Below are positions 900 through 30,108 of a DNA stretch of 64,000 nt, in pieces. This DNA is from Candidatus Magasanikiibacteriota bacterium. GTDB taxonomy: Bacteria > Patescibacteriota > Patescibacteriia > Magasanikbacterales > UBA922. The stretch lies in NCBI GenBank assembly GCA_021648085.1, contig JAKITS010000001.1, positions 816,064 to 880,063 on the forward strand, given 5' to 3'. The translations under genes were made by a program, and so were the position numbers. The stretch's first letter is position 1; every line of letters begins with the position of its first letter. The notes under the pieces were generated by a model that was not told the origin of the DNA, did no database searches, and was given only the letters and a program-made list of their open reading frames with translations.

Positions 900-1090
900 G
901 TTTTAGTGATATTTTCACGAGATCCCAGCCTGCCGGCAGGCACGGCTTCGACTTCGCTCAGGATGGCGTGATGGAAAGGTGATGTTGTCCCGAGATCCTT
1001 CGGCTGTCGCTCAGGATGACGTGGTTTTATTCACATCATATTAAGCTGAATATAGTGGAGTCGAAACAAACCAGCCAACAGGCACAGTAT
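900..1090. repeat. MITE-like repeat family copy (X units with cctgccggcagg insertion)
   Basis: cgagatcccagcctgccggcaggcacggcttcgacttcgctcaggatggcgtg ... ccgagatccttcggctgtcgctcaggatgacgtg. Confidence 0.8.
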
Positions 1091-1269
1091 CTCGAAGCTT
1101 TATCACCAGAACTATAAATATTCAATGTTCTTTTGTTTTAAACTTAAAGGTACTTATTTCGGCTTATCAATCATTTAATTGATATATAACTATACCACTT
1201 TTTGGCTCTTTTGTCAAGTCTTTTTAACTCTATTTGGCTTATTTTAGCCAAATTTTATATTGATATTTT

Positions 1270-1490
1270 TTGGTTTTTGTGATATTGTTTCGAGATCCTT
1301 CGACTTCGCTCAGGATGACGTGTGTATGTTTTATGTTTTGTTTAGGACGACATGTGAGTATTTTGTGCTTTGCTCCGTTCGGAATGACGTTTTTTATTCA
1401 CGTCATATTGAGCTTCACCTCGTGGAGTTAAAAATAAAAGCTCACGTCATATTGAGCGGAACGAAGTGGAGTCGAAATATCTCGTGTTTG
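1270..1490. repeat. MITE-like repeat family copy
   Basis: tcgagatccttcgacttcgctcaggatgacgtg (1292-1322), hairpin atgacgt..acgtcat, and acgtcatattgagcggaacgaagtggagtcgaaatatctcg (about 1445-1485). Confidence 0.85.
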
Positions 1491-1530
1491 TTTTATTATT
1501 TTTTACTCCTTAGTTTATAAGACAAAATCC

Positions 1531-1559
1531 TTGACAAAATAGAACAATTCATTTATAAT
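1531..1559 (+). promoter_or_regulatory. sigma70-type promoter (TTGACA-17 bp-TATAAT) for rpsT
   Basis: ttgaca at 1531-1536, 17-nt spacer, tataat at 1554-1559, about 30 nt upstream of rpsT ATG. Confidence 0.7.
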
Positions 1560-1588
1560 GCCTGTGTTTAATAAACTTCAAGAAAATT

Positions 1589-1858
1589 ATGCCAAATAAA
1601 GATAATGCCAAAAAGGCACTAAGACAATCAATTAAAAGAGCTCTCAGAAACAAAAAAGTAAAAATAGCTTACAAAGAAGCTGTGAAAAATGTAGATAAAG
1701 CTATTTTAGCTGGATCAAAAGATCTAACAGCATTAGTTGTGAAAGCTCAAAAGAAATTGGATAAAGCTGCAAAACTAAATGTAATCAGCAAAAATACTGC
1801 TGGAAGAAAAGTAGCAAGATTGATGAGAAAAATGTCAAAAGTTAAGGTCGCAAAGTAA
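1589..1858 (+). CDS. rpsT: 30S ribosomal protein S20
   Basis: 89 aa, basic, N-term MPNKDNAKKALRQSIKRALRNKK matches S20 family; consensus sigma70 promoter 1531-1559 upstream, hairpin terminator downstream. Confidence 0.9.
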   Translation: MPNKDNAKKALRQSIKRALRNKKVKIAYKEAVKNVDKAILAGSKDLTALVVKAQKKLDKAAKLNVISKNTAGRKVARLMRKMSKVKVAK

Positions 1859-1959
1859 AGAAATATTGTTTTAAAAAACCTCGATGTAATAATCAAGGTT
1901 TTTTTGTTTAAATAAAAAAGGGAATTGGCATTTTTTTAATTATTTATATTTTAGTGATA

Positions 1960-2140
1960 TTTCTACGAGATCCCTGCCTGCCGGCAGGAAGCGGAGTCGA
2001 AATGACGTGACTTAATATACGTCATCCTGAGCGGAGTGAAACGAAGTCGAAATATCTCGGGAAAGTATCATTAGAACTTTGAATATTTTATGTTCTAATG
2101 ATCCTGAATCGAGATCCTTCGACTTCGCTCAGGATGACGT
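1960..2140. mobile_element. MITE-like element (complete 122-bp copy 2019-2140 plus adjacent half-unit)
   Basis: ACGTCATCCTGAGCGGAGTGAAACGAAGTCGAAATATCTCGGG - 50-bp palindromic spacer - CGAGATCCTTCGACTTCGCTCAGGATGACGT. Confidence 0.8.
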
Positions 2141-2279
2141 TATGAGATAGCAAACTAAGTAAGAAAAAGAAGAGTGTTCTTTTTATATTTTGTCTTATAT
2201 TGTCTGTGCCATGTCTTATATTGTCTGTGCTATGTCTTTTCTTGTTCTAACCCAAAAGAATTAAGCAAGCATCAGCGAT

Positions 2280-3257
2280 TTATCCTTCTGCAAATTTTCC
2301 AACTAAAACATCTAAAAGTAAAGACTGGTCAACTTGGCCGGTTTTTATTTTTATATCAAAATCCAAAAGTTCTGAGTAGAAATTTTTTAAAGTATCTAGC
2401 GAATAATTATTCGCAGTTGATAAAGATTTTTGTGCCACATACGGATGCATCTTCAAAGTGACGGCAAGAGATTTGCTGTTTACTTGTCCATTTCTTTCTA
2501 CAAAATCTTTGATTTCTAACAAGATCCTACATTGACGCAAAAGCATAGCAAAAATATAAAGCGTATTTTCGCCTTTTTTGTATTGTTGGCGAATCATTGC
2601 ATAAGCATTTTTACTATTTTTATTTAAAATACTATCTATTAAATTGAAAATATTATCATCCGCCTTCTCTGCAACAAACAAATCTACATCTTTGTCTGTG
2701 ATCTCTTCACCATCTTTGTAATCCAAAAGTTGGTCGAGTAGGGAACTAGCTTGCCACATATCTATGGAATTTTTTGCAAGTTTGTTTGAAGCACTCCAAT
2801 TTATAGCACCACCTCTGCTTTGAGCTTCTTTTGCTATCCAACCTCCCAACTCATTTGACTTCAGGACGTCAAATTTGCGCGTGTAGGGCTGTTTGACTAG
2901 CAAAGACATAAGATTCTTCGCAACCTTCTTTTTTACAGTGTCTAAGCCGTCCCAAATCACTACAACATTTTTACTTTCTTTATCAAAAAAACCTTTTTTT
3001 AGGTGTTCTGCAAATAATTCAAAGAGTTTGTCTTGATTTGCAGCAAAAAAATTTTCCAGCACAATCATCTTTTTCTCCGCCAAAAAAGGAACGGTCAAAA
3101 CCTCGTTCCAAATAAACCCAATTTCTTTTGTCTTCTCGCAATCTATTTTTACAGTATTGAACCCTTCTAAATCACGCTTCTCCTTGAAACCTTTTATCAT
3201 TTGATTCAAATATTTTCTACTGCGAAAAGTGTCTTTGCCGTAAATAAAAATTATCAT
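2280..3257 (-). CDS. holA: DNA polymerase III delta subunit
   Basis: 325 aa; length and overall pattern typical of HolA (N-term MIIFIYGKDTF..., C-terminal helical domain); family call from pattern recognition, not a computed alignment. Confidence 0.7.
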   Translation of the reverse strand: MIIFIYGKDTFRSRKYLNQMIKGFKEKRDLEGFNTVKIDCEKTKEIGFIWNEVLTVPFLAEKKMIVLENFFAANQDKLFELFAEHLKKGFFDKESKNVVVIWDGLDTVKKKVAKNLMSLLVKQPYTRKFDVLKSNELGGWIAKEAQSRGGAINWSASNKLAKNSIDMWQASSLLDQLLDYKDGEEITDKDVDLFVAEKADDNIFNLIDSILNKNSKNAYAMIRQQYKKGENTLYIFAMLLRQCRILLEIKDFVERNGQVNSKSLAVTLKMHPYVAQKSLSTANNYSLDTLKNFYSELLDFDIKIKTGQVDQSLLLDVLVGKFAEG

Positions 3258-3295
3258 ATGTACTTATTCTAGTTTAATACCTTGCTATTGACAAG

Positions 3296-3395
3296 TAAAC
3301 AAAAGATGAATCACTTAGTTTGATGAATCGTTATACTTGATAAATCATTTTCGCTTCGCTGGATTTGATAAATCGCTTCGCTTGGATAAGACAGG
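3296..3395. repeat. short repeat family 2 (TTGATGAATCGCTTCGCTTG-like), multiple units
   Basis: gatgaatcacttagtttgatgaatcg...ttgataaatcattttcgcttcgctggatttgataaatcgcttcgcttgg; relatives at 7925-7972, 9105-9215, 20425-20470. Confidence 0.7.
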
Positions 3396-3456
3396 GAATT
3401 GACAAACTTTGTTTTTTATGTTTAAATATTACGACCTCAAATCAAAGGAGTAGGCA

Positions 3457-4023
3457 ATGAGAAAGTTCTTTTCAGCAATATTCGTGTTCTCAATTTTAAC
3501 TTTGTTTTGTTTTCCAATTTTTGGGCAGGGCTATGTTAGTTTGGAAACTGAAGTTTCAGTTCAAAATAATGTGGCCAGTATAAACACACTCGGGTATGCC
3601 GAGGTCGACAACATATTTATATTTGCTTCTGTTAGTGAAAATTTTTCGCAAGTTTATGGAGGACTAACAATCTCCGCCAACGAATTGTCTGCCGGCGCAG
3701 GAATAGGCGTGACAGGTGAAAATAATTTTAGAACTGCTTTATTTACTAGTTGGAGAGAAAAGTACTATTCTTTTTCGGCTGTAGGTGAAATGGATTTGAG
3801 TGAAGACTCAAAAGGAAACTTCTTTTACATTTTAAAATTCTTGACATATTCTCCAGAAAACATACTTAGATACGGATGGGTTTTAAGAAGGTTTAATGGT
3901 TTTGGACCACTTCTCGAATTCAATTTTGGTAGCCATATCACGGTCTGGAGTTCGCCGGTAATGTACGGCATCTTGGAAACAGGAAAAGTCAGCTCCATGT
4001 TTGGACTACGGATAAAAAACTAG
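3457..4023 (+). CDS. hypothetical secreted protein (N-terminal signal peptide)
   Basis: 188 aa, hydrophobic N-term MRKFFSAIFVFSILTLFCFPIFGQG; Gly/Ser/Asn-rich; followed by strong hairpin terminator 4028-4060. Confidence 0.5.
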   Translation: MRKFFSAIFVFSILTLFCFPIFGQGYVSLETEVSVQNNVASINTLGYAEVDNIFIFASVSENFSQVYGGLTISANELSAGAGIGVTGENNFRTALFTSWREKYYSFSAVGEMDLSEDSKGNFFYILKFLTYSPENILRYGWVLRRFNGFGPLLEFNFGSHITVWSSPVMYGILETGKVSSMFGLRIKN

Positions 4024-4027
4024 AAAC

Positions 4028-4060
4028 CAAAACCGTCTCGATACTTCGAGACGGTTTTTT
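4028..4060 (+). terminator. intrinsic terminator
   Basis: aaaaccgtctcgatacttcgagacggttttttt. Confidence 0.8.
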
Positions 4061-4084
4061 TATTTCTTATTTATATTTTAATTG

Positions 4085-4395
4085 TTCTGTGGCGAGATCC
4101 TTCGGCTTCGCTCAGGATGACGTATTTAACTTTTTACTTTATAGACTTTACGAACTTTCTACTCTGTCATCCTAAACTCGATTAGGGATCCAGAGTTTGT
4201 ATCACAATATAATTATTACAGTTTGTGTATTTTTATATAAAAATAATTCTGGTTTGTAGACTCCTAGATTCCCAGTCGAGCTGAGAATGACAGAAAACCC
4301 AACGCACGTCATATGGAGCGGAGTGAAACGGAGTCGAAAATTTAACACACGTCATATTGAGCGGAACGAAGTGGAGTCGAAATATCTCAGTTTAG
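4085..4395. repeat. MITE-like repeat family units plus Z module (ggattcccagtcgagctgagaatgacag)
   Basis: gcgagatccttcggcttcgctcaggatgacgta (about 4092-4124), Z module about 4268-4300, two Y-prime units about 4305-4390. Confidence 0.8.
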
Positions 4396-4439
4396 TATTA
4401 TTAAAATATAAATAATTAAATTAAAACTTTAGCCTTTTT

Positions 4440-7139
4440 TTATTTTAATTCACCCCAATTTTTGGCATGGCACGTATGAATTTCGAGTGGTGCCAACATT
4501 TTTGTGCTGTGATCAAAATGTTGCACAGTTTGCATTACCTCTTCTACAACTTTTGTCACTTTGTTTACCAAACTGCTTTTTACCTCAAAAATCAATTCGT
4601 CGTGAACTTGCAAAACTATTTTTACATCTTCAAGTTTAAAATTTTTCTTTAATCTTTTGTCAATTTCTATCATCGCAAGTTTGAGCATATCAGCTGCTGT
4701 TCCCTGAATTGGCATATTTACTGCCATTCGCTCACCAGAGTTTCTCACCTGAAAATTTGATGCTCTCAATTCTGGAATATATCTGCGTCTTCCAAAAAAA
4801 GTTTCAACATATCCAAGTTTTTTTGCAGAATCCAAAGTTTCGTCTATATATTTTTTGACACCTTCAAATTCCTCAAAATATTTTTTTATAAATTCTTTTG
4901 CTTGTTCGTTGGAAATTCCTGTTCTGCTCGCCAAACCATATGAACCCATTCCATACAAAACACCAAAATTTACCTCTTTGGCACGACTTCGCATTGTTTT
5001 TGTAACCTCATCTTCTGACACACCGTTTATCGCTGCCGCAGTTGCTGTGTGAATGTCTTTTCCTTCGTTAAAAATCTCCAACATCTTTTTATCTTTTGCA
5101 AGCGAAGCCACAATTCTAAGCTCAATCTGCGAATAGTCGGCTGAAACCAGTTCAAAACCACTCGGTGTGCTAAAAGCCGTACGAATTTCTCTGCCAATTT
5201 CCGAACGCGTAGGAATATTCTGCAAATTTGGTTTTGAGCTAGAAAGTCTACCGGTTGTTGTCACGGCTTGATTAAAATCTGTATGAATTCTATTTGTATT
5301 TTTATTTATAATTTTTGGCAAAGCATCTACATAAGTATTTTTCAATTTTGACAATTCACGAAACTCCTCTATAAGTGGAATTATGTTGTGAAAACTTCGC
5401 AATTTATTCAATTCGCTAGAAGCAGTGGAGTAGCCAGTTTTACCTTTTTTAATTCCAGCGGTTGACAAAGCCAAATCTTTGAACAAAATATCGCGAAGCT
5501 GAACAGACGAGGCAATATTAAAATCTTTTCCTGCCAATTTATGTATTTTTTCAGTTGTTTTTTCCAATTTTGCGTTTATTTGTTTTGCCAATTTATTTAA
5601 TTTTTCTTTATCAACAAATATTCCATTTAGTTCTATTTGCGCCAAAACTTTTATCAACGGCATTTCAATTTTATGAAACAAATCATCATTTTTCTGTTCT
5701 TTCAAAAATTTATGATATTCTTCGTAAAGTCTGAAAAAATATTCAACCCCCTCATGTACGACTTCTGTACCATCATCAAACAAACTCGTTTGAACATTTT
5801 CTTTTATTTCTTTTCCAAGTTCTCTTGCAACAATACTTTTCAAATCGTGAGCACGGGTGCTAGAATTTGTTAAATACGAAGCAATCATCAAATCAAAAAG
5901 TTTGTTTTTAATTTCAATTCTATTTACTAACAAAATTTTTGTAAGTTGTTTTAGATTATGCCCAAAAAGCAAATTATCCCCAGAAAACAAAGAATAAAAA
6001 GTTTTCTTTTGATCATTTTCAAAAGCACGAAAATCGAAAAAATAATTTTCATTTTTAATTCCACACGCAAATCCTATCAATTTATTTCCTAAAACATCTT
6101 CATTTCCTAAAATTTCTTTACAAAAAAATTCTTTTTCTTTTTTTAATTTTGAAACTATTTTTTCTACATCTTCTACTGAAACTTTTACAATTTCTCTTTT
6201 TTCTTTTTCGGTAGATTTTGTTGGAAGATCTTTTTCCTCGTCGCCAAACATCGCAGAAGCGCGTTTTACCAAACTATTAAATCCAAAACCATTGAACAAA
6301 GCCACAACTTCTTCCAAATCTATTGTTTGTGTCTCGGCATCTTTTACTTTGAAATTTAGACCTTTTACATCTGTCACAATTGTTGCCAATTTTTTACTCA
6401 AAAAAGCCATTTCCTTGTCTGCTTTTAGCAGTTTTACAGTTCGCGGTTTTATTCCTTTTTCTTCCAAACTATCTATTTGCTCATAAATTTTCTCCAAATT
6501 CCCAATTTTAGAAAGCAGTTCATTTGCGCCTTTATCTCCAATTCCTTTTACTCCTGGAATATTATCAGATGGATCGCCTTTTAAAGATTTAAAATCAACC
6601 ATCATTTCTGGTGCAAAACCAAATTTTTCTTTTACAGCCTTTTCATCGAACATTACCACATCTGTTATTCCTTTGCGGATCAAATATACATGGATATTTT
6701 CATCTACCAACTGCAATAAATCTTTATCGCCACTTGAGATTATAACCTGCCCATCCCACTTTTTACTTAAATCTTTTGCAATTGTTCCTATCACATCATC
6801 AGCCTCAAAACCTGCTTTTTGATAAATTGGAATATCAAAAGCCTTCACAACTTCGTGCACAAGTGGAATTTGATCATATAATTCTTGGTCTGTCTTTACC
6901 CGCTTTACCTTATATTCTTTGTACAGATCATCTCGAAAAGTCTTTTTTGCAACATCAAAACTCACAGCCAAATATTCTGGTTTTATAGTATCCAAAACCT
7001 TCAAAAGCATAGAAGCAAAACCATACACAGCGTTCACCTGCACGCCAGCTTTGGTAGTAAACGGAGGAAGCGCGTGATAAGCTCTGTGGATTATCGCATT
7101 CCCATCTATAATTACAAATTTTTCTTTTTTATTAGTCAT
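4440..7139 (-). CDS. polA: DNA polymerase I
   Basis: 899 aa; N-terminal 5'-3' exonuclease domain, C-terminal family A polymerase motifs (DYSQIELR, QVHDELIFEV); 3'-5' exo motifs appear degenerate. Confidence 0.95.
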   Translation of the reverse strand: MTNKKEKFVIIDGNAIIHRAYHALPPFTTKAGVQVNAVYGFASMLLKVLDTIKPEYLAVSFDVAKKTFRDDLYKEYKVKRVKTDQELYDQIPLVHEVVKAFDIPIYQKAGFEADDVIGTIAKDLSKKWDGQVIISSGDKDLLQLVDENIHVYLIRKGITDVVMFDEKAVKEKFGFAPEMMVDFKSLKGDPSDNIPGVKGIGDKGANELLSKIGNLEKIYEQIDSLEEKGIKPRTVKLLKADKEMAFLSKKLATIVTDVKGLNFKVKDAETQTIDLEEVVALFNGFGFNSLVKRASAMFGDEEKDLPTKSTEKEKREIVKVSVEDVEKIVSKLKKEKEFFCKEILGNEDVLGNKLIGFACGIKNENYFFDFRAFENDQKKTFYSLFSGDNLLFGHNLKQLTKILLVNRIEIKNKLFDLMIASYLTNSSTRAHDLKSIVARELGKEIKENVQTSLFDDGTEVVHEGVEYFFRLYEEYHKFLKEQKNDDLFHKIEMPLIKVLAQIELNGIFVDKEKLNKLAKQINAKLEKTTEKIHKLAGKDFNIASSVQLRDILFKDLALSTAGIKKGKTGYSTASSELNKLRSFHNIIPLIEEFRELSKLKNTYVDALPKIINKNTNRIHTDFNQAVTTTGRLSSSKPNLQNIPTRSEIGREIRTAFSTPSGFELVSADYSQIELRIVASLAKDKKMLEIFNEGKDIHTATAAAINGVSEDEVTKTMRSRAKEVNFGVLYGMGSYGLASRTGISNEQAKEFIKKYFEEFEGVKKYIDETLDSAKKLGYVETFFGRRRYIPELRASNFQVRNSGERMAVNMPIQGTAADMLKLAMIEIDKRLKKNFKLEDVKIVLQVHDELIFEVKSSLVNKVTKVVEEVMQTVQHFDHSTKMLAPLEIHTCHAKNWGELK

Positions 7140-7194
7140 AGACTGTATTGTATCACTTTTACAAACAGTTTCAAGACATAATCTTTTTACTACT

Positions 7195-7760
7195 GTTTAT
7201 CATTTCTAGCTTAACCAGAAATCAACCGATCCCCAAGCTGAGGATGACAAGAAGGATATAATGATAGATGATACAGATTCGTGTGTAAACTCATTCCTTA
7301 CTTAATCTGCTCAATCTACTTTTCTCTCACGTCATCCCGAACGAAGCGAAGCCGAGCTTGAGGGATCTCGAGACAGAATAACAAAAACATTAAATAGTGA
7401 AACAAATACGAGATATTTCGGCTCTACTTCGTTCCGCTCAATATGACGTGAATAAAAAACGTCATCCTAAGCGAAGCTGAAGGATCTCGTGAAAGAATAA
7501 TAAGAACAAAAAATAGTAAAACAAACACGAGATCCTTCGGCTCCACTCCGTTCCGCTCAATATGACGTGAATAAAAAACGTCATCCTGAGCGAAATGGAG
7601 CAAAGCGGAATGAAGTCGAAGGATCTCGAGACAGTATCACAAAAGGAAAAAATATATTAACCCTTGAAAAGATATTAAAAATATGTTATATTTGTGTTGA
7701 GTAAGTGTACTAATGAATTAAAAACGAGATCCTTCGGCTATCGCTCAGGATGACGTGATT
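7195..7760. mobile_element. array of three tandem MITE-like copies plus leader segment (about 565 bp)
   Basis: copies 7329-7449, 7459-7568, 7578-7755 joined by gaataaaaa linkers; 7218-7470 about 85% identical to 19128-19400. Confidence 0.85.
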
Positions 7761-7847
7761 AATTTGTGACTTTCGACTTTATAGACTTTTGACTTTTTTA
7801 CTTAGTCTGCCTAGTCTGCTTAATCGTTAATCTGCTTTTTCTCCAAT

Positions 7848-7922
<75 letters not shown>

Positions 7923-8035
7923 AGATCGTGTAACTTCGTTCGTTTGATCTATCGCTTCGCTTGAAAGAAAAAATATACAAAAATAAAAAAAGCCTTGGAT
8001 GTTTAGTCCGAGGCTTTTGGCTTTTTAGCTTATTT

Positions 8036-8647
8036 TCATTTTGCTAGAAGCCATCTATGTAACTTGGCAAAGGTAATGTATTTCTTCTGGAAACTAACTA
8101 CAATCCTCACTGTAGCTTTTATTAGTTTTTTCAAACCAACCAAAGTAAACACAATAATTTCACCCATTATTGCGAAAAGTACAAAACCTACACAAAGTAA
8201 AAGTCCATAAACCATTCCAAACCAAACACCATAAGCAATTGAACACAAAAATCCAAATCCCAAAATTGCAAATACAGGCTCGTTCTGTTTGTGTTCAAAT
8301 ACTATTCTATAAGTTAATACCAAAATAAAAACACAAATTGGAACAAAAAGTAGATCCCACCATCTACTTTGGAAAGTTTCAATAAATAGACTTGGAACCA
8401 ATTTTAGCAATACTCCATGAATACTATACTCATAATAAACATAATCAACCACCAAATTGCTTTCAGCAAAATACTGAAAGATGCTCAAAACCACAAGAGT
8501 GATGACCGTTGAAATCATGGCAAAACGCCACATCAATTTCACTGTTCTTTTCCACTCCATTTTTTTCTTATTTTCTTCTGCTTTTCTCCACATCTCTTCT
8601 GCTTGCTCTTCACTAGAAACATAAACAACATTGATGTCTTCAGACAT
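8036..8647 (-). CDS. hypothetical polytopic membrane protein
   Basis: 203 aa, 4-5 hydrophobic helices; consensus minus-strand promoter (TTGACA-17-TATACT) at 8727-8755. Confidence 0.5.
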   Translation of the reverse strand: MSEDINVVYVSSEEQAEEMWRKAEENKKKMEWKRTVKLMWRFAMISTVITLVVLSIFQYFAESNLVVDYVYYEYSIHGVLLKLVPSLFIETFQSRWWDLLFVPICVFILVLTYRIVFEHKQNEPVFAILGFGFLCSIAYGVWFGMVYGLLLCVGFVLFAIMGEIIVFTLVGLKKLIKATVRIVVSFQKKYITFAKLHRWLLAK

Positions 8648-8726: not shown

Positions 8727-8755
8727 AGTATAGCACAAAAAAAGGGTTTTGTCAA
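8727..8755 (-). promoter_or_regulatory. sigma70-type promoter (TTGACA-17-TATACT) on minus strand
   Basis: revcomp of 8727-8755 reads ttgacaaaaccctttttttgtgctatact. Confidence 0.65.
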
Positions 8756-8859: not shown

Positions 8860-9081
8860 AAAAATCCAAGGTCTACAAACCAGAACTGTGATTCAAACCC
8901 TGGATTCCCAGTCAAGCTGAGAATGACAAAAAAATCCGTACGTCATATTGAGCGGAGTGAAACGGAGTCGAAATATCTCGTGAAAGTATTATCCAAATTA
9001 TGAATATTTAAAGTCTTATGATTTTATTTCGAGATCCGTTCGACTTCATTCCGCTTTGCTGCATTCCGCTCAGGATGACGT
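8860..9081. mobile_element. Z module + complete MITE-like copy (8940-9081)
   Basis: ggattcccagtcaagctgagaatgacaaaaaaatcc then ACGTCATATTGAGCGGAGTGAAACGGAGTCGAAATATCTCG - spacer - CGAGATCCGTTCGACTTCATTCCGCTTTGCTGCATTCCGCTCAGGATGACGTG. Confidence 0.85.
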
Positions 9082-12918: not shown

Positions 12919-14037
12919 TTATTGCCTAATAGGCATCACAATATAAATATAACTATTGTCATTTTTTGGTTTGAGCAAACAAGGTGTATCGCTAGTATTT
13001 ATATTTAAAATAACTTCACTTCCAGAGATTTGTTGCAATCCGTCCAAAACATATCTATGATTCAATAAAATTTCATTTCCATCACCAACAACTTTTGCAT
13101 CTAAACTAGAAGAGTGTTCTCCGGTTTGTGTACTTGTAGAAGAAACAGTCATTTCTCCGTCGCCAATTTTAAAATTCACTGCGTTTACTCCCAAAGTTGT
13201 AAATAAACTTGCAGCTTTTATCTTTTTTACCAAAGATCCGTTTGAAACAGTCGCACCAGTTTTAAATTCCTTGGGGATAATCTGTGTATAATCTGGATAC
13301 TTACCACCCACAAGCCTAGAAGACATTTCAAAATTCGCAAATCTTACAGAAATCTGGTTTTCACTTACCCACAAACGCACATTATTTTCAGCTTGCTCAC
13401 CTTTTAAAGTACCTATCAATCGAACCAATTCTTGAACACTTTTTGAAGGAACAATACATTCAAAACTTTCGTCTCCTTGCGAAATTTCTATTTTCTTTTC
13501 AGCCAATCTGTATGAATCTGTTCCAGCCAAAGTTAGACCTTTAAAACTTGGATTGAAAAATCCAAAATAAACTCCAGATAATTCTTGTCTTATTTCATTT
13601 TTTGCCACAGCTACAACAACTTTTGCCAACGAATCTTTAAAACCTTCTGCCGAAAGTACATATCCATTTTTTTCTTCTATTTCTGGAATAACGGGATAGT
13701 CATCTGCTTCTACACCTTTTATTTTTGTTTTGGAACTTCCACATTTTACGATAAGTTCATTTTCTTCTAAAGAAATATGAATTTGTTCTTCTGGTAAAAG
13801 ATTTATAAAATCAGTCAATGTTTTTGCTGGAACTGTAAAACTTCCTTCGTTTTCTATTTTAGCTCTTAGGTTTGTTTTTATTGCAATTTCCAAATTTGTA
13901 CTCACAAGTTCAACTTTAGAGCCACCTACCTGAATCAATACATTATTTAGTATTGGTAAATTTGTATGTTTATTTGCTATTCCGCTTACTTGGTGTAATA
14001 CGCTTAATAGGTTTTCTCTTGTACATGTGAATTTCAT
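12919..14037 (-). CDS. dnaN: DNA polymerase III beta sliding clamp
   Basis: 372 aa; N-term MKFTCTRENLLSVLHQVSGIANKHTNLPILNNVLIQ typical DnaN; located directly downstream of dnaA. Confidence 0.85.
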   Translation of the reverse strand: MKFTCTRENLLSVLHQVSGIANKHTNLPILNNVLIQVGGSKVELVSTNLEIAIKTNLRAKIENEGSFTVPAKTLTDFINLLPEEQIHISLEENELIVKCGSSKTKIKGVEADDYPVIPEIEEKNGYVLSAEGFKDSLAKVVVAVAKNEIRQELSGVYFGFFNPSFKGLTLAGTDSYRLAEKKIEISQGDESFECIVPSKSVQELVRLIGTLKGEQAENNVRLWVSENQISVRFANFEMSSRLVGGKYPDYTQIIPKEFKTGATVSNGSLVKKIKAASLFTTLGVNAVNFKIGDGEMTVSSTSTQTGEHSSSLDAKVVGDGNEILLNHRYVLDGLQQISGSEVILNINTSDTPCLLKPKNDNSYIYIVMPIRQ

Positions 14038-14139: not shown

Positions 14140-14365
14140 GCTGTGGACAAAGTGGATAACCCTTATTTTTGTTTTGGTTTAGCTAATTTTTGTTTGTTAG
14201 AAATGTGTATCAAGCTGTTAATTTTCTATTAACAACTTGTGTATAAAACTGTTGATAACATTTTGTATGTGGATAACTTACTTTTTGTACACAGGTTATT
14301 CATCTTCTCTCCACAATTTATTCTACATGTTATACATATTTTATCAACAGTTTATCCACTTTTTG
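14140..14365. promoter_or_regulatory. DnaA-box cluster in dnaA-dnaN intergenic region (candidate oriC part)
   Basis: TTATCCACA-like boxes at about 14152 (agtggataac), 14268 (tgtggataact, perfect), 14355 (tttatccact); AT-rich. Confidence 0.6.
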
Positions 14366-16974: not shown

Positions 16975-17240
16975 TTACTTTTCTGTCATTCCTGACTTGA
17001 CCAGGAATTCAGGAGTCTTTGGTAAATAGACAATGATACAAACCCTGCCTGCCCGCCGGCAGACGGGGGTCATCAATCAAGCTGAGGATGACAGAATACC
17101 CATATGTCATCCTGAGCGAAGTCGAAGGATCTCGGGATAAGTATTACAAAACAAAAAACATTCACAATTTTGGTTATACTTTCCCGAGATTCCTCAAGTT
17201 CCACTTCACTTCGTTTCGTTTCGTTTGAGATGATGTGTAG
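16975..17240. mobile_element. composite repeat: gtcattcctgacttgaccaggaattcaggagtc module + cctgcccgccggcag + Z + MITE copy (17104-17237)
   Basis: atgtcatcctgagcgaagtcgaaggatctcggg ... cccgagattcctcaagttccacttcacttcgtttcgtttcgtttgagatgatgtg. Confidence 0.8.
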
Positions 17241-17545: not shown

Positions 17546-17734
17546 AAAGGTTGACAAAAATCTAAATTTATAATAATTTTAGAATAGTTCTTTAACTTTT
17601 TAGATCAAAATAAAAAAATATTATAAAAAACTTTAGTTCGTTTTCTCTCTAGCTTGTTTTATTTGGATCTATTGCTATCATTTTGATATTGATTATCATA
17701 AAAATCAAAAACTCGTAATTTAATTACGAGTTTT

Positions 17735-17962
17735 TTATTTTAGAATTTCAATTAGTTTATTTTTTCCGCTTTTACCTTTTTTAATCAAAATTTTGGATTT
17801 TGGAATTTTCCACTCTTTGTTTATTAGTTTTATCAAAGCTTCATTTGCTTTTCCATTAATGGGCGGGGAAGTCAGCTTTATTTTGAAACTTCCATCTTCC
17901 AACTTTTCTATTTTATTTTCCGAAGATTTTGGAATTACTTTTATTTTTATAAATTTTTTCAT
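17735..17962 (-). CDS. DUF167/YggU-family small protein
   Basis: 75 aa; pattern ...KVIPKSSENKIEKLEDGSFKIKLTSPPINGKANEALIKLI... typical of UPF0235. Confidence 0.55.
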   Translation of the reverse strand: MKKFIKIKVIPKSSENKIEKLEDGSFKIKLTSPPINGKANEALIKLINKEWKIPKSKILIKKGKSGKNKLIEILK

Positions 17963-17989: not shown

Positions 17990-18125
17990 AAAATCACGTC
18001 ATCCTGAGCGATAGCCGAAGGATCTCGGGACAATATTACCAGAACATAAAATATTCAAAGTTCTAATGATACTAAATCGAGATATTTCGACTTCGTTTCA
18101 CTCCGCTCAATATGTCGTATTTTTA
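17990..18125. mobile_element. complete MITE-like copy (17996-18118)
   Basis: cacgtcatcctgagcgatagccgaaggatctcggg - spacer (inverted relative of the 2060 spacer) - tcgagatatttcgacttcgtttcactccgctcaatatgtcgta. Confidence 0.85.
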
Positions 18126-19059: not shown

Positions 19060-19660
19060 CTTAGCTTAACCAGGAATCCAGGAGTCTTTAATCACAAAAC
19101 AGTGAAAGAAAAGAAAAAAAGAAAAAAAGAAATAGATCTCCAAGCTAAGGATGACAAGAAGGACATAATGATACATGACACAGATAACATGATACAGATT
19201 CTTATATAAATTCCTTCCTTACTTAATCTACCCAATCTGCTTATTTCTTAATCTACTTTTCTCTCACGTCATCCCGAACGAAGCGAAGCGGAATTTAAAA
19301 AATCTCGAAACAATATCACAAAAACATAAAATAGTGAAACAATCCCGAGATATTTCGACTCCGCTTCGTTCCGCTCAATATGACGTGAACTTTTATTTTC
19401 GACTCCACAAGGTGAAGCTCAATATGACGTGAATAAAAACTTTTCGACTTCACTACACTTTGTTCCGTTTCGTTTGGGATGACGTATAGAGTCTTCTATC
19501 ATTTCTCAGTGAAGCGAGAAATCCCTTAAACATTTTAAAAACACAAAACACATTAATTAAAACACTGAAACGATTTCTCATCCGTATTCTCGGATTCGAA
19601 ATGACAGAAATAAGGTTTAATTATTTATATTTTGGTTATATTGCACCGAGATATTTCGAA
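19060..19660. mobile_element. composite repeat array (paralog of 7195-7760) with extra modules
   Basis: gcttaaccaggaatccaggagtc; leader about 85% identical to 7218-7330; MITE copy 19266-19386; extra Y unit to 19432; module gaagcgagaaatccc...ggattcgaaatgacagaa shared with 28680-28745. Confidence 0.85.
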
Positions 19661-26179: not shown

Positions 26180-26430
26180 GTAAGAAGAACAAGAAATAAA
26201 TACACATCATCCCGAACAAAGCGAAGTACAAAATACTCACATATTATCCCAAACAAAACGCAAAATATACACACGTCATCCTGAGCGAAGCCGAAGGATC
26301 TCGAAACAATATCACCAAAACATAAAAATAGTGAAACAAACACGAGATATTTCGACTCCACTTCGTTTTGTTTAGTATGATGTGAAGTCCTTTTGTCATT
26401 CCCGACCCCGATCGGGAATCCAGGAGTCTT
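26180..26430. mobile_element. MITE-like copy (26273-26383) plus flanking modules (gtcattcccgaccccgatcgggaatccaggagtc)
   Basis: cacgtcatcctgagcgaagccgaaggatctcgaaac ... cacgagatatttcgactccacttcgttttgtttagtatgatgtg. Confidence 0.85.
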
Positions 26431-28599: not shown

Positions 28600-28870
28600 T
28601 TTTATAAAAAATATTGTACATTATGCTTATTCCGGTCATCTCGAGCGAAGTGAGAGAGCGCTTAAGTGTTTTAAAAACAACACACTTTAATAATAAAGCT
28701 TAAGCGATTTCTCACTTACATACTTGGGTTCGGAATGACAGAACAAAAGGAACTAAGGTTTTATTATAATTATTTATATTTTATGAAACTGTATGGGGAT
28801 ATTTCGACTCCACTTCGTTTCGCTCAATATGATGTGAAAGAAAGACCTCTTCGAGGTTAAGATCTAAGAC
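28600..28870. repeat. degenerate composite repeat (shares modules with 19500-19640)
   Basis: ggtcatctcgagcgaagtgagagagcg...ttcggaatgacagaa...gatatttcgactccacttcgtttcgctcaatatgatgtg. Confidence 0.7.
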
Positions 28871-29977: not shown

Positions 29978-30108
29978 CACATCATTCTAAACGAAATTGA
30001 AAGATCTCAAAAAAACTTAGAAGAAATACGAATATTTATAATTTTGGTTATATTATTTCGAGATATTTCGACTTCACTTTGTTTTGCTCAATATGATGTG
30101 TGTATTTT
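29978..30108. repeat. degenerate MITE-like copy in nrdA-nrdB intergenic spacer
   Basis: cacatcattctaaacgaaattgaaagatctcaa ... tcgagatatttcgacttcactttgttttgctcaatatgatgtg. Confidence 0.75.

Follow-up and report, generated by a model that had tools for sequence, protein, structure and literature searches.

Covarying hairpin repeats in a Magasanikbacteria genome are probably long-loop Ssn-related motifs

The 64,000-nucleotide stretch considered here (the window; positions 816,064 to 880,063 of contig JAKITS010000001.1, assembly GCA_021648085.1, from a Candidatus Magasanikiibacteriota bacterium) carries in its intergenic spacers two types of short repeat unit, X and Y. The comparative evidence indicates that these units are a real hairpin maintained by selection. 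They are probably Ssn-related motifs (SRMs), equivalent to the CGTC-tagged repetitive extragenic palindromes (REPs), that is, short interspersed DNA hairpins bound by nucleases of the Ssn family; we put the probability of this reading at about 0.7. The units, their covariation, their doublet architecture, their turnover and the nesting of ssn-like genes between such units in other genomes are directly established.

The window has a G+C content of 32.5%, and housekeeping genes surrounding dnaA/dnaN (S20, holA, polA, PBP, rnpA, yidD, tig, nrdAB) are found in its first 34 kb. About 30 units are recognisable, all in intergenic spacers between 0.9 and 30 kb; none occurs in the gene-dense half, from 33 to 64 kb. 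Their general form is CGAGAT-NNN-loop-N'N'N'-ATGACGT. The X consensus is CGAGAT-CCT-TCGACTTCGCTC-AGG-ATGACGT, found exactly at 1291-1321, 2110-2140, 4093-4123, and 26273-26303. The Y consensus is CGAGAT-ATT-TCGACTCCACTTCGTTCCGCTC-AAT-ATGACGT, found exactly at 1444-1484(-) and with one or two mismatches at 4349-4389(-), 7409-7449(+), and 19346-19386(+). Neither pattern has a match in the shuffled window. The loop is built of modules, TCGR-(CTNCG)n-CTC, where n is 1 in X, 3 in Y and 5 at 7578-7628, and in the window the X/Y units measure 31-51 nt, with a 5-bp stem and loops of 12, 13, 22, or 32 nt. Read tag first, nearly all clean units display ..CGTC-AT..AT-C... A second, classical unit type, Z, accompanies them (e.g., TGTCAT-CCTAAACTCGATTAGGG-AT-CCAG at 4165-4193), with a stem of ~8 bp, a loop of 4-5 nt and a tail CCA(G) or CTA(G).

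X and Y had been singled out by an earlier reading of the sequence alone (the original prediction), in which their stems were described as strictly compensatory. The changes are indeed complementary (ATCCT/AGGAT vs ATATT/AATAT), and a third compensated state, CCC/GGG, occurs at 7329-7370, but only 16 of the 20 clean window units pair at all three variable stem positions, and two X/Y chimeras have broken stems (7528-7568, CCT/AAT; 2019-2059, ATT/AGG); the units at 26343-26383 and 29979-30009 are decayed. Both X examples of that reading are exact copies (1291-1321 and 2110-2140). Its two Y examples are real units, at 4349-4389(-) and 7409-7449(+), although a start at 7420 truncates the latter and the Y sequence quoted is two bases off this copy. 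The loop indel it noticed amounts to 10 nt, i.e., two extra 5-nt CTNCG-like units.

Pairing was then assessed in other genomes by a scan of one genome per species, with flanks and loop ends fixed and both arms left unconstrained at the three inner stem positions, which yielded at least 120 loci (L-numbers below designate loci or contigs fetched from other genomes). Among the matches listed, the arms are complementary in 141 of 157 units, in seven states (GCT, GCC, TCC, GTC, CCT, TCT, and CTC). With a looser pattern, again among the matches listed, 82 of 104 distinct units are fully paired, against a mean of 19.6 and a maximum of 33 when the right arms are shuffled. In an alignment of 90 distinct 31-nt units from the matches listed, 97.6% of the cells are paired vs 85.2% after shuffling, a value reached by 0 of 500 shuffles (slid controls give 19-40%), and changes on both sides are seen at all three variable pairs. 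Pairs A5-T26 and T6-A25 are invariant; the flank columns are invariant in alignment A1 as well, yet are partly fixed by the collecting pattern. Overall, nine distinct Watson-Crick states are spread over six phyla on invariant flanks and a near-invariant loop, and the unpaired states are nearly all singletons, one step from some paired state. A metagenome scan with the Y-type loop fixed and the stems free returned nine units, eight of them paired, with stems CCT/AGG, ATT/AAT, CCC/GGG, and GCT/AGC; one is the exact Y loop on the X stem. The original prediction had staked itself beforehand on statistically supported covariation and on there being more than two stem states: the Y loop sits on four compensated stems, and seven states are found elsewhere. 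Its view that the covariation betrays a hairpin under selection and bound by a protein is strengthened both by the 141 of 157 complementary units and by a published partner, Ssn (PMC11893778).

The units occur in Hymenobacter and other Bacteroidota, Thermomicrobiales, Dehalococcoidia, Nitrospinales, two metagenome-assembled genomes (MAGs) of Gammaproteobacteria, a Christensenellaceae MAG, and another Magasanikbacteria, with loops of 12-41 nt. No match to the free-stem pattern was found in 2.9 million viral contigs, and a literature text search for the unit sequence returned unrelated primers only. Two extensions of the stem were rejected: an extra outer CG/CG pair shows no covariation and has an uncompensated A at column 1, and an extra inner-loop CG/CG pair changes only to unpaired or wobble combinations. 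In a Gammaproteobacteria MAG (L050 3292-3351; L086 19-78 and 105-164), the loops of long-loop units contain a second, nested hairpin whose loop, AGTA, is constant and whose stem, though wholly different from copy to copy, always pairs (ATCGCTG/CAGCGAT, ACCAATA/TATTGGT, and CGACG/CGTCG).

X and Y are two arms of one recurrent inverted doublet and not drifting variants, a point that the original prediction missed. Nine head-to-head X/Y doublets with tags pointing outward are present in the window, with conserved spacers of 38-39 nt or ~50 nt and a length of ~110-135 bp (111-133 bp measured). Every doublet of this genome has one X-type arm, whose loop is short and whose stem contains G-C pairs, and one Y-type arm, with an n=3 loop and a stem of A-T pairs only; the CCT+ATT heterodimer is also present in L127 and L130, two further AT-rich contigs. 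In other genomes, among the matches listed, 75 head-to-head dimers stand against 6 head-to-tail ones, and the Hymenobacter doublets are mostly homodimers (62/75). The "second hairpin" formerly proposed, ATGACGT-N9-ACGTCAT, is the tag-to-tag junction of arrays; it is present at 7443-7465 and also at 7562-7584, but the copy once given as 1397-1420 was ~13 nt off and lies at 1384-1406.

The folding check suggested at the time separates units from doublets. Single hairpins, as isolated strands, are no more stable than shuffled sequences (z from +0.05 to +1.1), and the evidence for pairing is for this reason comparative and not thermodynamic. Doublets folded as RNA do far better than shuffles (z from -3.5 to -5.4). 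The covarying positions are exactly those that are mismatched in the long doublet hairpin, which argues that the heterodimers have kept within-unit pairing over arm-to-arm pairing. In Hymenobacter doublets (e.g., L034, L044, and L011), the spacers of 36-43 nt are themselves palindromic, e.g., GCGGGTGGTAGTAAACCAATCGATTGAGTTACTACCACCCGC, and the doublet as a whole is therefore a single long hairpin, to which the units are side features. An origin of the doublet spacers by internal deletion of ssn genes was considered and rejected, as it fits only 7 of 75 Hymenobacter spacers, most being palindromic. The units of the window are as follows.

918-969, plus strand: long-loop unit with the nested GC-rich palindrome CTGCCGGCAGG in its loop; arms CCC/AGG; decayed tag ATGGCGT.
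991-1022, plus strand: X-type unit, CCT/AGG, 13-nt loop; N9 tag-to-tag junction with a decayed unit at 1033-1094(-).
1291-1321, plus strand: X unit, loop TCGACTTCGCTC, an example of the original prediction.
1384-1406: tag-to-tag junction ATGACGT-TTTTTATTC-ACGTCAT joining two decayed units.
1444-1484, minus strand: exact Y unit, loop TCGACTCCACTTCGTTCCGCTC.
1966-2008, plus strand: rearranged unit with the nested palindrome CTGCCGGCAGG; tag to tag (N10) with 2019-2059.
2019-2140: head-to-head doublet of a Y-loop chimera, ATT/AGG, 2019-2059(-), a 50-nt spacer, and X 2110-2140(+).
4093-4123, plus strand: X unit downstream of a canonical terminator at 4029-4058.
4165-4292: inverted pair of classical TGTC-tagged Z units, 4165-4193 (CCTAAACTCGATTAGGG) and 4264-4292 (…ATTCCCAGTCGAGCTGAGAATGACA), compared with PMC3733652 and PMC11893778.
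4306-4389, minus strand: two tandem Y-type units, a headless one at 4306-4341 and one at 4349-4389 (ATT/AAT, head TGAGAT).
7226-7249, plus strand: Z-type unit (GATCCCCAAGCTGAGGATGACA).
7329-7628: five-unit mosaic array in alternating orientation, with 38-nt and 9-nt spacers in turn and a tandem period of 119.
Array members 1-3: 7329-7370(-), CCC/GGG; 7409-7449(+), Y; 7459-7489(-), X.
Array members 4-5: 7528-7568(+), chimera CCT/AAT; 7578-7628(-), X stem with n=5 loop.
7725-7756, plus strand: solo X-type unit, 13-nt loop, upstream of tRNA-Cys.
8900-9081: Z 8900-8928(+), 11 nt, then a head-to-head doublet.
Doublet within 8900-9081: Y 8940-8980(-), 49-nt spacer, long-loop X 9030-9081(+).
17080-17093: partial Z unit preceding the next doublet.
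17104-17236: head-to-head doublet between rnpA and yidD.
Arms of 17104-17236: X 17104-17134(-) with tag ATGACAT and a decayed long-loop unit 17185-17236(+).
17996-18118: head-to-head doublet, X 17996-18027(-), 50-nt spacer, Y 18078-18118(+).
19130-19485: cluster of Z 19130-19156(+), a doublet, and two headless units ending at 19431 and 19485.
Doublet within 19130-19485: 19266-19306(-) (GGG arm, left arm decayed) and Y 19346-19386(+).
26273-26383: head-to-head doublet, X 26273-26303(-), 39-nt spacer, Y 26343-26383(+), ATT/AGT, decaying.
28796-28836, plus strand: Y-type unit with decayed head GGGGAT and tag ATGATGT.
29979-30099: head-to-head doublet in the nrdA-nrdB spacer, decayed X 29979-30009(-) and Y 30059-30099(+).

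Two published systems resemble these units. Chenal et al. (2025, Nat Commun 16:2388, PMC11893778) defined the NTS, CGTCATTCCCGCGMAVGCGGGAATCYRG, and the SRMs, searched for with the string HGTCWYN(0-2)YYVSBRHN(0-5)WNVSBRGN(0-2)RNCYNB, and found such motifs near 71% of ssnA homologues. The system is delimited by a hairpin of 20-50 nt and a flanking gene for a single-domain GIY-YIG protein of ~95 residues (cd10448). The hairpin is bound by SsnA when it is single-stranded DNA, but neither as RNA nor as double-stranded DNA, and the cut falls a few bases 5' of the motif. Cutting depends on the three bases that precede the palindrome and binding on the C that follows it, while the loop is dispensable in identity and extendable in length (PMC11893778). 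The X/Y units are likewise inverted repeats of this order (31-51 nt, with covarying pairs) and oriented hairpins with an unpaired (C/T)GTC before the stem, an A-T stem base, and a C directly after the palindrome. Their conserved flanks are thus the very positions found critical in the SsnA mutagenesis. Many copies are intergenic, loop length is tolerated, and a unit-ssn-unit layout is seen in several phyla, in its long-loop form in Hymenobacter and Solirubrum. They differ in their 5-bp stem, in a sequence-conserved pyrimidine loop of 12-32 nt built of 5-nt units, and in a tail CTCG in place of CYRG.

The second system is that of the CGTC-tagged REPs (Di Nocera, De Gregorio, Rocco 2013, PMC3733652), classes CGTC-1 to -4, which include Neisseria dRS3 and Rickettsia RPE-4/-6. 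They have a stem of 8-9 bp, a loop of 4-5 nt and a tail CCA, are reported to lack a transposase, and are mostly head-to-head dimers, often heterodimers, with occasional clusters, in several phyla; repeats with unusual loops were left out of that survey, and Patescibacteria were not covered. X and Y share the terminal unpaired CGTC/TGTC tag, the A-T at stem positions 1-2, the short unpaired tail (CTCG, however, and not the consensus CCA), the head-to-head heterodimers (nine in the window), the occasional clusters and the spread over several phyla. The Z units of the window fit the classical form. The array also recalls the Escherichia coli bacterial interspersed mosaic elements (BIMEs) and REPINs, with two unit types in mosaic arrays, alternating orientation, two alternating spacers, and the doublet as the repeated unit.

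The partner gene is found in other genomes. In all the ssn-like contexts fetched, units are adjacent to the gene, usually on both sides. Classical units accompany it in Nitrospinae L157, Patescibacteria L147/L149, Thermodesulfobacteriota L139, and the metagenome contigs L158 and L161; long-loop units flank it in Hymenobacter (L008, L136/L137, L138, L162, and L163/L167) and in Solirubrum L135. In the long-loop contexts, the stop codon is typically followed by 12-16 nt (AACGAAGCGGTA) and then by a unit, and in L138 a 39-nt inverted repeat encloses the gene. The left unit of L161 agrees with the published NTS consensus in 27 positions out of 28, and the L161 protein, flanked by this near-consensus NTS, is 49% identical to the Hymenobacter-type protein. 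The homologues are single-domain proteins of 94-108 residues with the PF01541 GIY-YIG domain in precomputed Pfam annotation. NCBIfam gave sub-threshold matches only, and a search of the PDB retrieved no SsnA structure, only distant UPF0213 chains. The neighbourhoods of the gene differ among Hymenobacter and Solirubrum genomes, carA-carB being frequent: many Hymenobacter (L136, L137, and L162-L172) hold the homologue at one conserved carA-carB place, and L008, L135, and L138 hold it elsewhere. This pattern combines vertical retention and mobility.

The closest genome fetched, L121, belongs to a related species (PolA 83% identical, ~80% nucleotide identity, synteny over 15 kb) and documents the turnover of the units. 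S20 and holA overlap in L121, whereas in the window 420 bp with three units lie between them. The type of unit differs between the two genomes in several orthologous spacers, and a Z/Z doublet occupies in L121 the site orthologous to the X/Y doublet at 17996-18118. The polA spacer of L121 holds a small GIY-YIG pseudogene between two inverted Z units. It lies at 12922-13190, between polA and the next gene. Five contigs of differing sample origin (L121-L125) share its two in-frame TAA codons; the ssn-like gene of these contigs is a fixed pseudogene, still flanked by repeats. An intact 108-residue copy is present in L158, and Hymenobacter L008 has an intact homologue amid long-loop units. Between repeat clusters at 8036-8647, the window has a hydrophobic open reading frame (ORF) of 203 residues with no Pfam match, which is absent from the syntenic PBP-tRNA-Cys-polA region of L121.

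On the SRM/CGTC-REP reading, the tag-first unit would be 5'-(A)CGTC, AT-NNN, loop, N'N'N'-AT, CTCG, with the AT-NNN arms pairing in single-stranded DNA. The GTC left unpaired ahead of the stem and the C behind it would be fixed contact points, and the three inner pairs would need only to pair, thereby drifting by compensatory change. A small single-domain GIY-YIG nuclease of the Ssn family would bind the folded unit as single-stranded DNA and nick it a few bases 5' of the tag. Units would be copied and kept as inverted doublets, possibly descended from unit-ssn-unit elements; in the X/Y heterodimer each arm could self-fold, the long arm-to-arm palindrome staying imperfect. Individual copies would later decay or recombine, hence the X/Y chimeras. 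That Ssn binds and nicks X and Y in this genome, with an effect on the cell, is what the published system would lead one to expect.

Several points weigh against this reading. No ssn gene is present in the 64-kb window, and X and Y may be orphans in this genome, the closest relative showing a pseudogene only. The ssn-like assignment itself is based on PF01541, size and flanking units, not on alignment to SsnA/cd10448. The SRM search string has no hit in the window, X, Y and Z all failing it, and one in L121; it is a search heuristic tuned to G+C-rich stems of 6-7 bp and loops of up to 5 nt. The X/Y stem and loop also lie outside the 8-9 bp and 4-5 nt of the CGTC REPs, and single hairpins are thermodynamically unstable. 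The inner stem of X/Y varies freely, whereas a change of stem sequence abolished the activity of Neisseria meningitidis SsnA even when pairing was kept (PMC11893778); an enzyme of greater tolerance, or more than one enzyme, would therefore be needed for free drift of the stem. Finally, the conservation of the loop sequence across phyla is not explained by the Ssn model.

An alternative reading makes the long-loop units a separate, cross-phylum SRM class. The nuclease, of the Hymenobacter-type Ssn clade or an unseen enzyme of the candidate phyla radiation (CPR), would read only the GTC/C flanks and pairing; the pentamer loop, TCGR(CTNCG)nCTC, would be read by something else or be a switch of length, prone to slippage; two specificities would be encoded in the fixed X/Y heterodimer; and the units could serve in the CPR cell as a single-strand restriction/recombination barrier. 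CPR cells are thought to depend on DNA uptake. Taken jointly, these proposals are unlikely.

It is improbable that the units act instead at the level of RNA, as transcribed hairpins serving as mRNA 3' stabilisers, processing sites, terminators or small RNAs. Some E. coli REPs do act at the RNA level, the RNA folds of the doublets are far better than those of shuffles, and several doublets lie between co-directional genes of likely operons (nrdA-nrdB, 29979-30099; rnpA-yidD, 17104-17236) and are therefore probably transcribed. The units are nevertheless not intrinsic terminators, since they lack T-runs and canonical terminators stand separately beside them (4029-4058, 7988-8018, and 17707-17735); a terminator scan calls no X/Y hairpin except an incidental one at 1440-1457 overlapping a Y tag, and it also calls the stem of a Z unit (7229-7245) and, at 17044-17063, a nested GC palindrome. 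Units point either way with respect to the genes beside them, and some lie in a divergent promoter region (7226-7756). G-T and A-C mismatches are about equally frequent in the stems, so that no strand is favoured, and in the long hairpin formed as RNA it is the covarying positions that are mismatched. Rfam has no match to the units: with gathering as well as E-value cut-offs it returned only tRNAs and, on the long palindromes, spurious microRNA-like hits. SsnA, moreover, has no RNA binding (PMC11893778). Of the two functions first envisaged, protein recognition or an RNA role, the former thus fits and the latter, together with the Term-seq check suggested for it, is less apt.

We regard it as very doubtful that the hairpin is unselected, with two repeat lineages whose matching arms arose by templated (quasi-palindrome) mutation or gene conversion. 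Chimeric and decayed copies do persist, so that individual copies are not strongly constrained; single hairpins are weak, and many within-genome copies are recent duplicates that inflate the counts. Such an origin is at odds, however, with the nine Watson-Crick states in six phyla on constant flanks and loop, with unpaired states lying almost always one step off a paired one, with one loop on four compensated stems, and with a known protein that binds such hairpins (PMC11893778).

Mobilisation of the doublets by a REP-associated tyrosine transposase (RAYT, of the HUH Y1 type) is highly improbable. The doublet- and BIME-like organisation, the many intergenic copies and the presence of some Hymenobacter insertions beside orthologous genes would suit a REPIN/RAYT system, and in both cases a small nuclease from a repeat-flanked gene recognises a single-strand hairpin with an unpaired tag. 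Membership nonetheless fails on tag and enzyme: the tag is CGTC/TGTC and not GT[AG]G (GTAG in RAYT systems), and the gene actually nested between units encodes a GIY-YIG protein, a fold unrelated to HUH Y1. The window ORFs scanned between 1 and 34 kb include no Y1 transposase, nor is there one beside units in at least 120 loci; Pfam scans of 20 window ORFs at 2.3-34 kb detected neither transposase nor nuclease, and clustering of ORFs within 400 nt of units over at least 120 loci gave housekeeping genes only as shared neighbours. The unit sequences are also absent from the RAYT-REP table of PMC6006769, and CGTC REPs were reported to lack a transposase (PMC3733652). Double-stranded palindromic operators of a dimeric DNA-binding protein, whose half-sites would co-change with its specificity without any hairpin, might account for co-varying inverted half-sites with conserved flanks, but can hardly be the answer, because a dimer of fixed geometry could not fit half-sites whose distance varies from 12 to 41 nt, the two flanks are not symmetric (CGAG vs GACGT), and dozens of copies show no consistent position relative to promoters.

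Other elements are found around the units. A G+C-rich palindrome (CCTGCCGGCAGG and variants) recurs at 926-945, 1975-1990, and 17044-17063 of the window, and in L147 ~100 nt upstream of the first TGTCAT; twice it is nested in or fused to long-loop units, and it looks like a separate small module inserting into repeats. A module of repeated TAATCTGC-like octamers (e.g., CTTACTTAATCTGCCTAATCTGCTTATTTCTTAATCTGCT) abuts the tag ends of units in both related genomes (window 7296-7328, 7797-7845, and 19217-19265; L121 2075-2120). Three near-consensus promoter-like sites (TTGACA-17-TATAsT with TG) lie at 692-720, 1189-1217, and 8727-8755 (minus strand), and the copies at 650-720 and 1150-1217 sit within similar-looking segments. 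The dnaN-dnaA-rpmH/rnpA region is located at 12.9-16.5 kb, and a 34-nt tandem repeat (14291-14355) lies in the dnaA-dnaN spacer, probably part of the replication origin. GC skew tracks gene strand and places no origin between 14 and 34 kb.

The family to which X and Y are assigned is already in print, as CGTC-tagged REPs in 2013 and as Ssn nucleases with their motifs in 2025. What is new is the long-loop, short-stem variant, its association with an ssn gene of the Hymenobacter type, and how abundant it is in a genome of the CPR. This version escapes the published motif, is carried by Patescibacteria, Bacteroidota, Chloroflexota, Nitrospinota, Gammaproteobacteria, and Bacillota, and flanks an ssn gene in Hymenobacter and Solirubrum; current SRM counts are therefore probably underestimates. 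The genome in which the units are so dense measures only ~1 Mb. Natural stem variants on a constant loop and constant flanks are ready substrates for mapping the read-out of Ssn, which matters for the single-strand DNA tools that have been proposed. A real, selected DNA hairpin could also be detected by a reader from the sequence alone.

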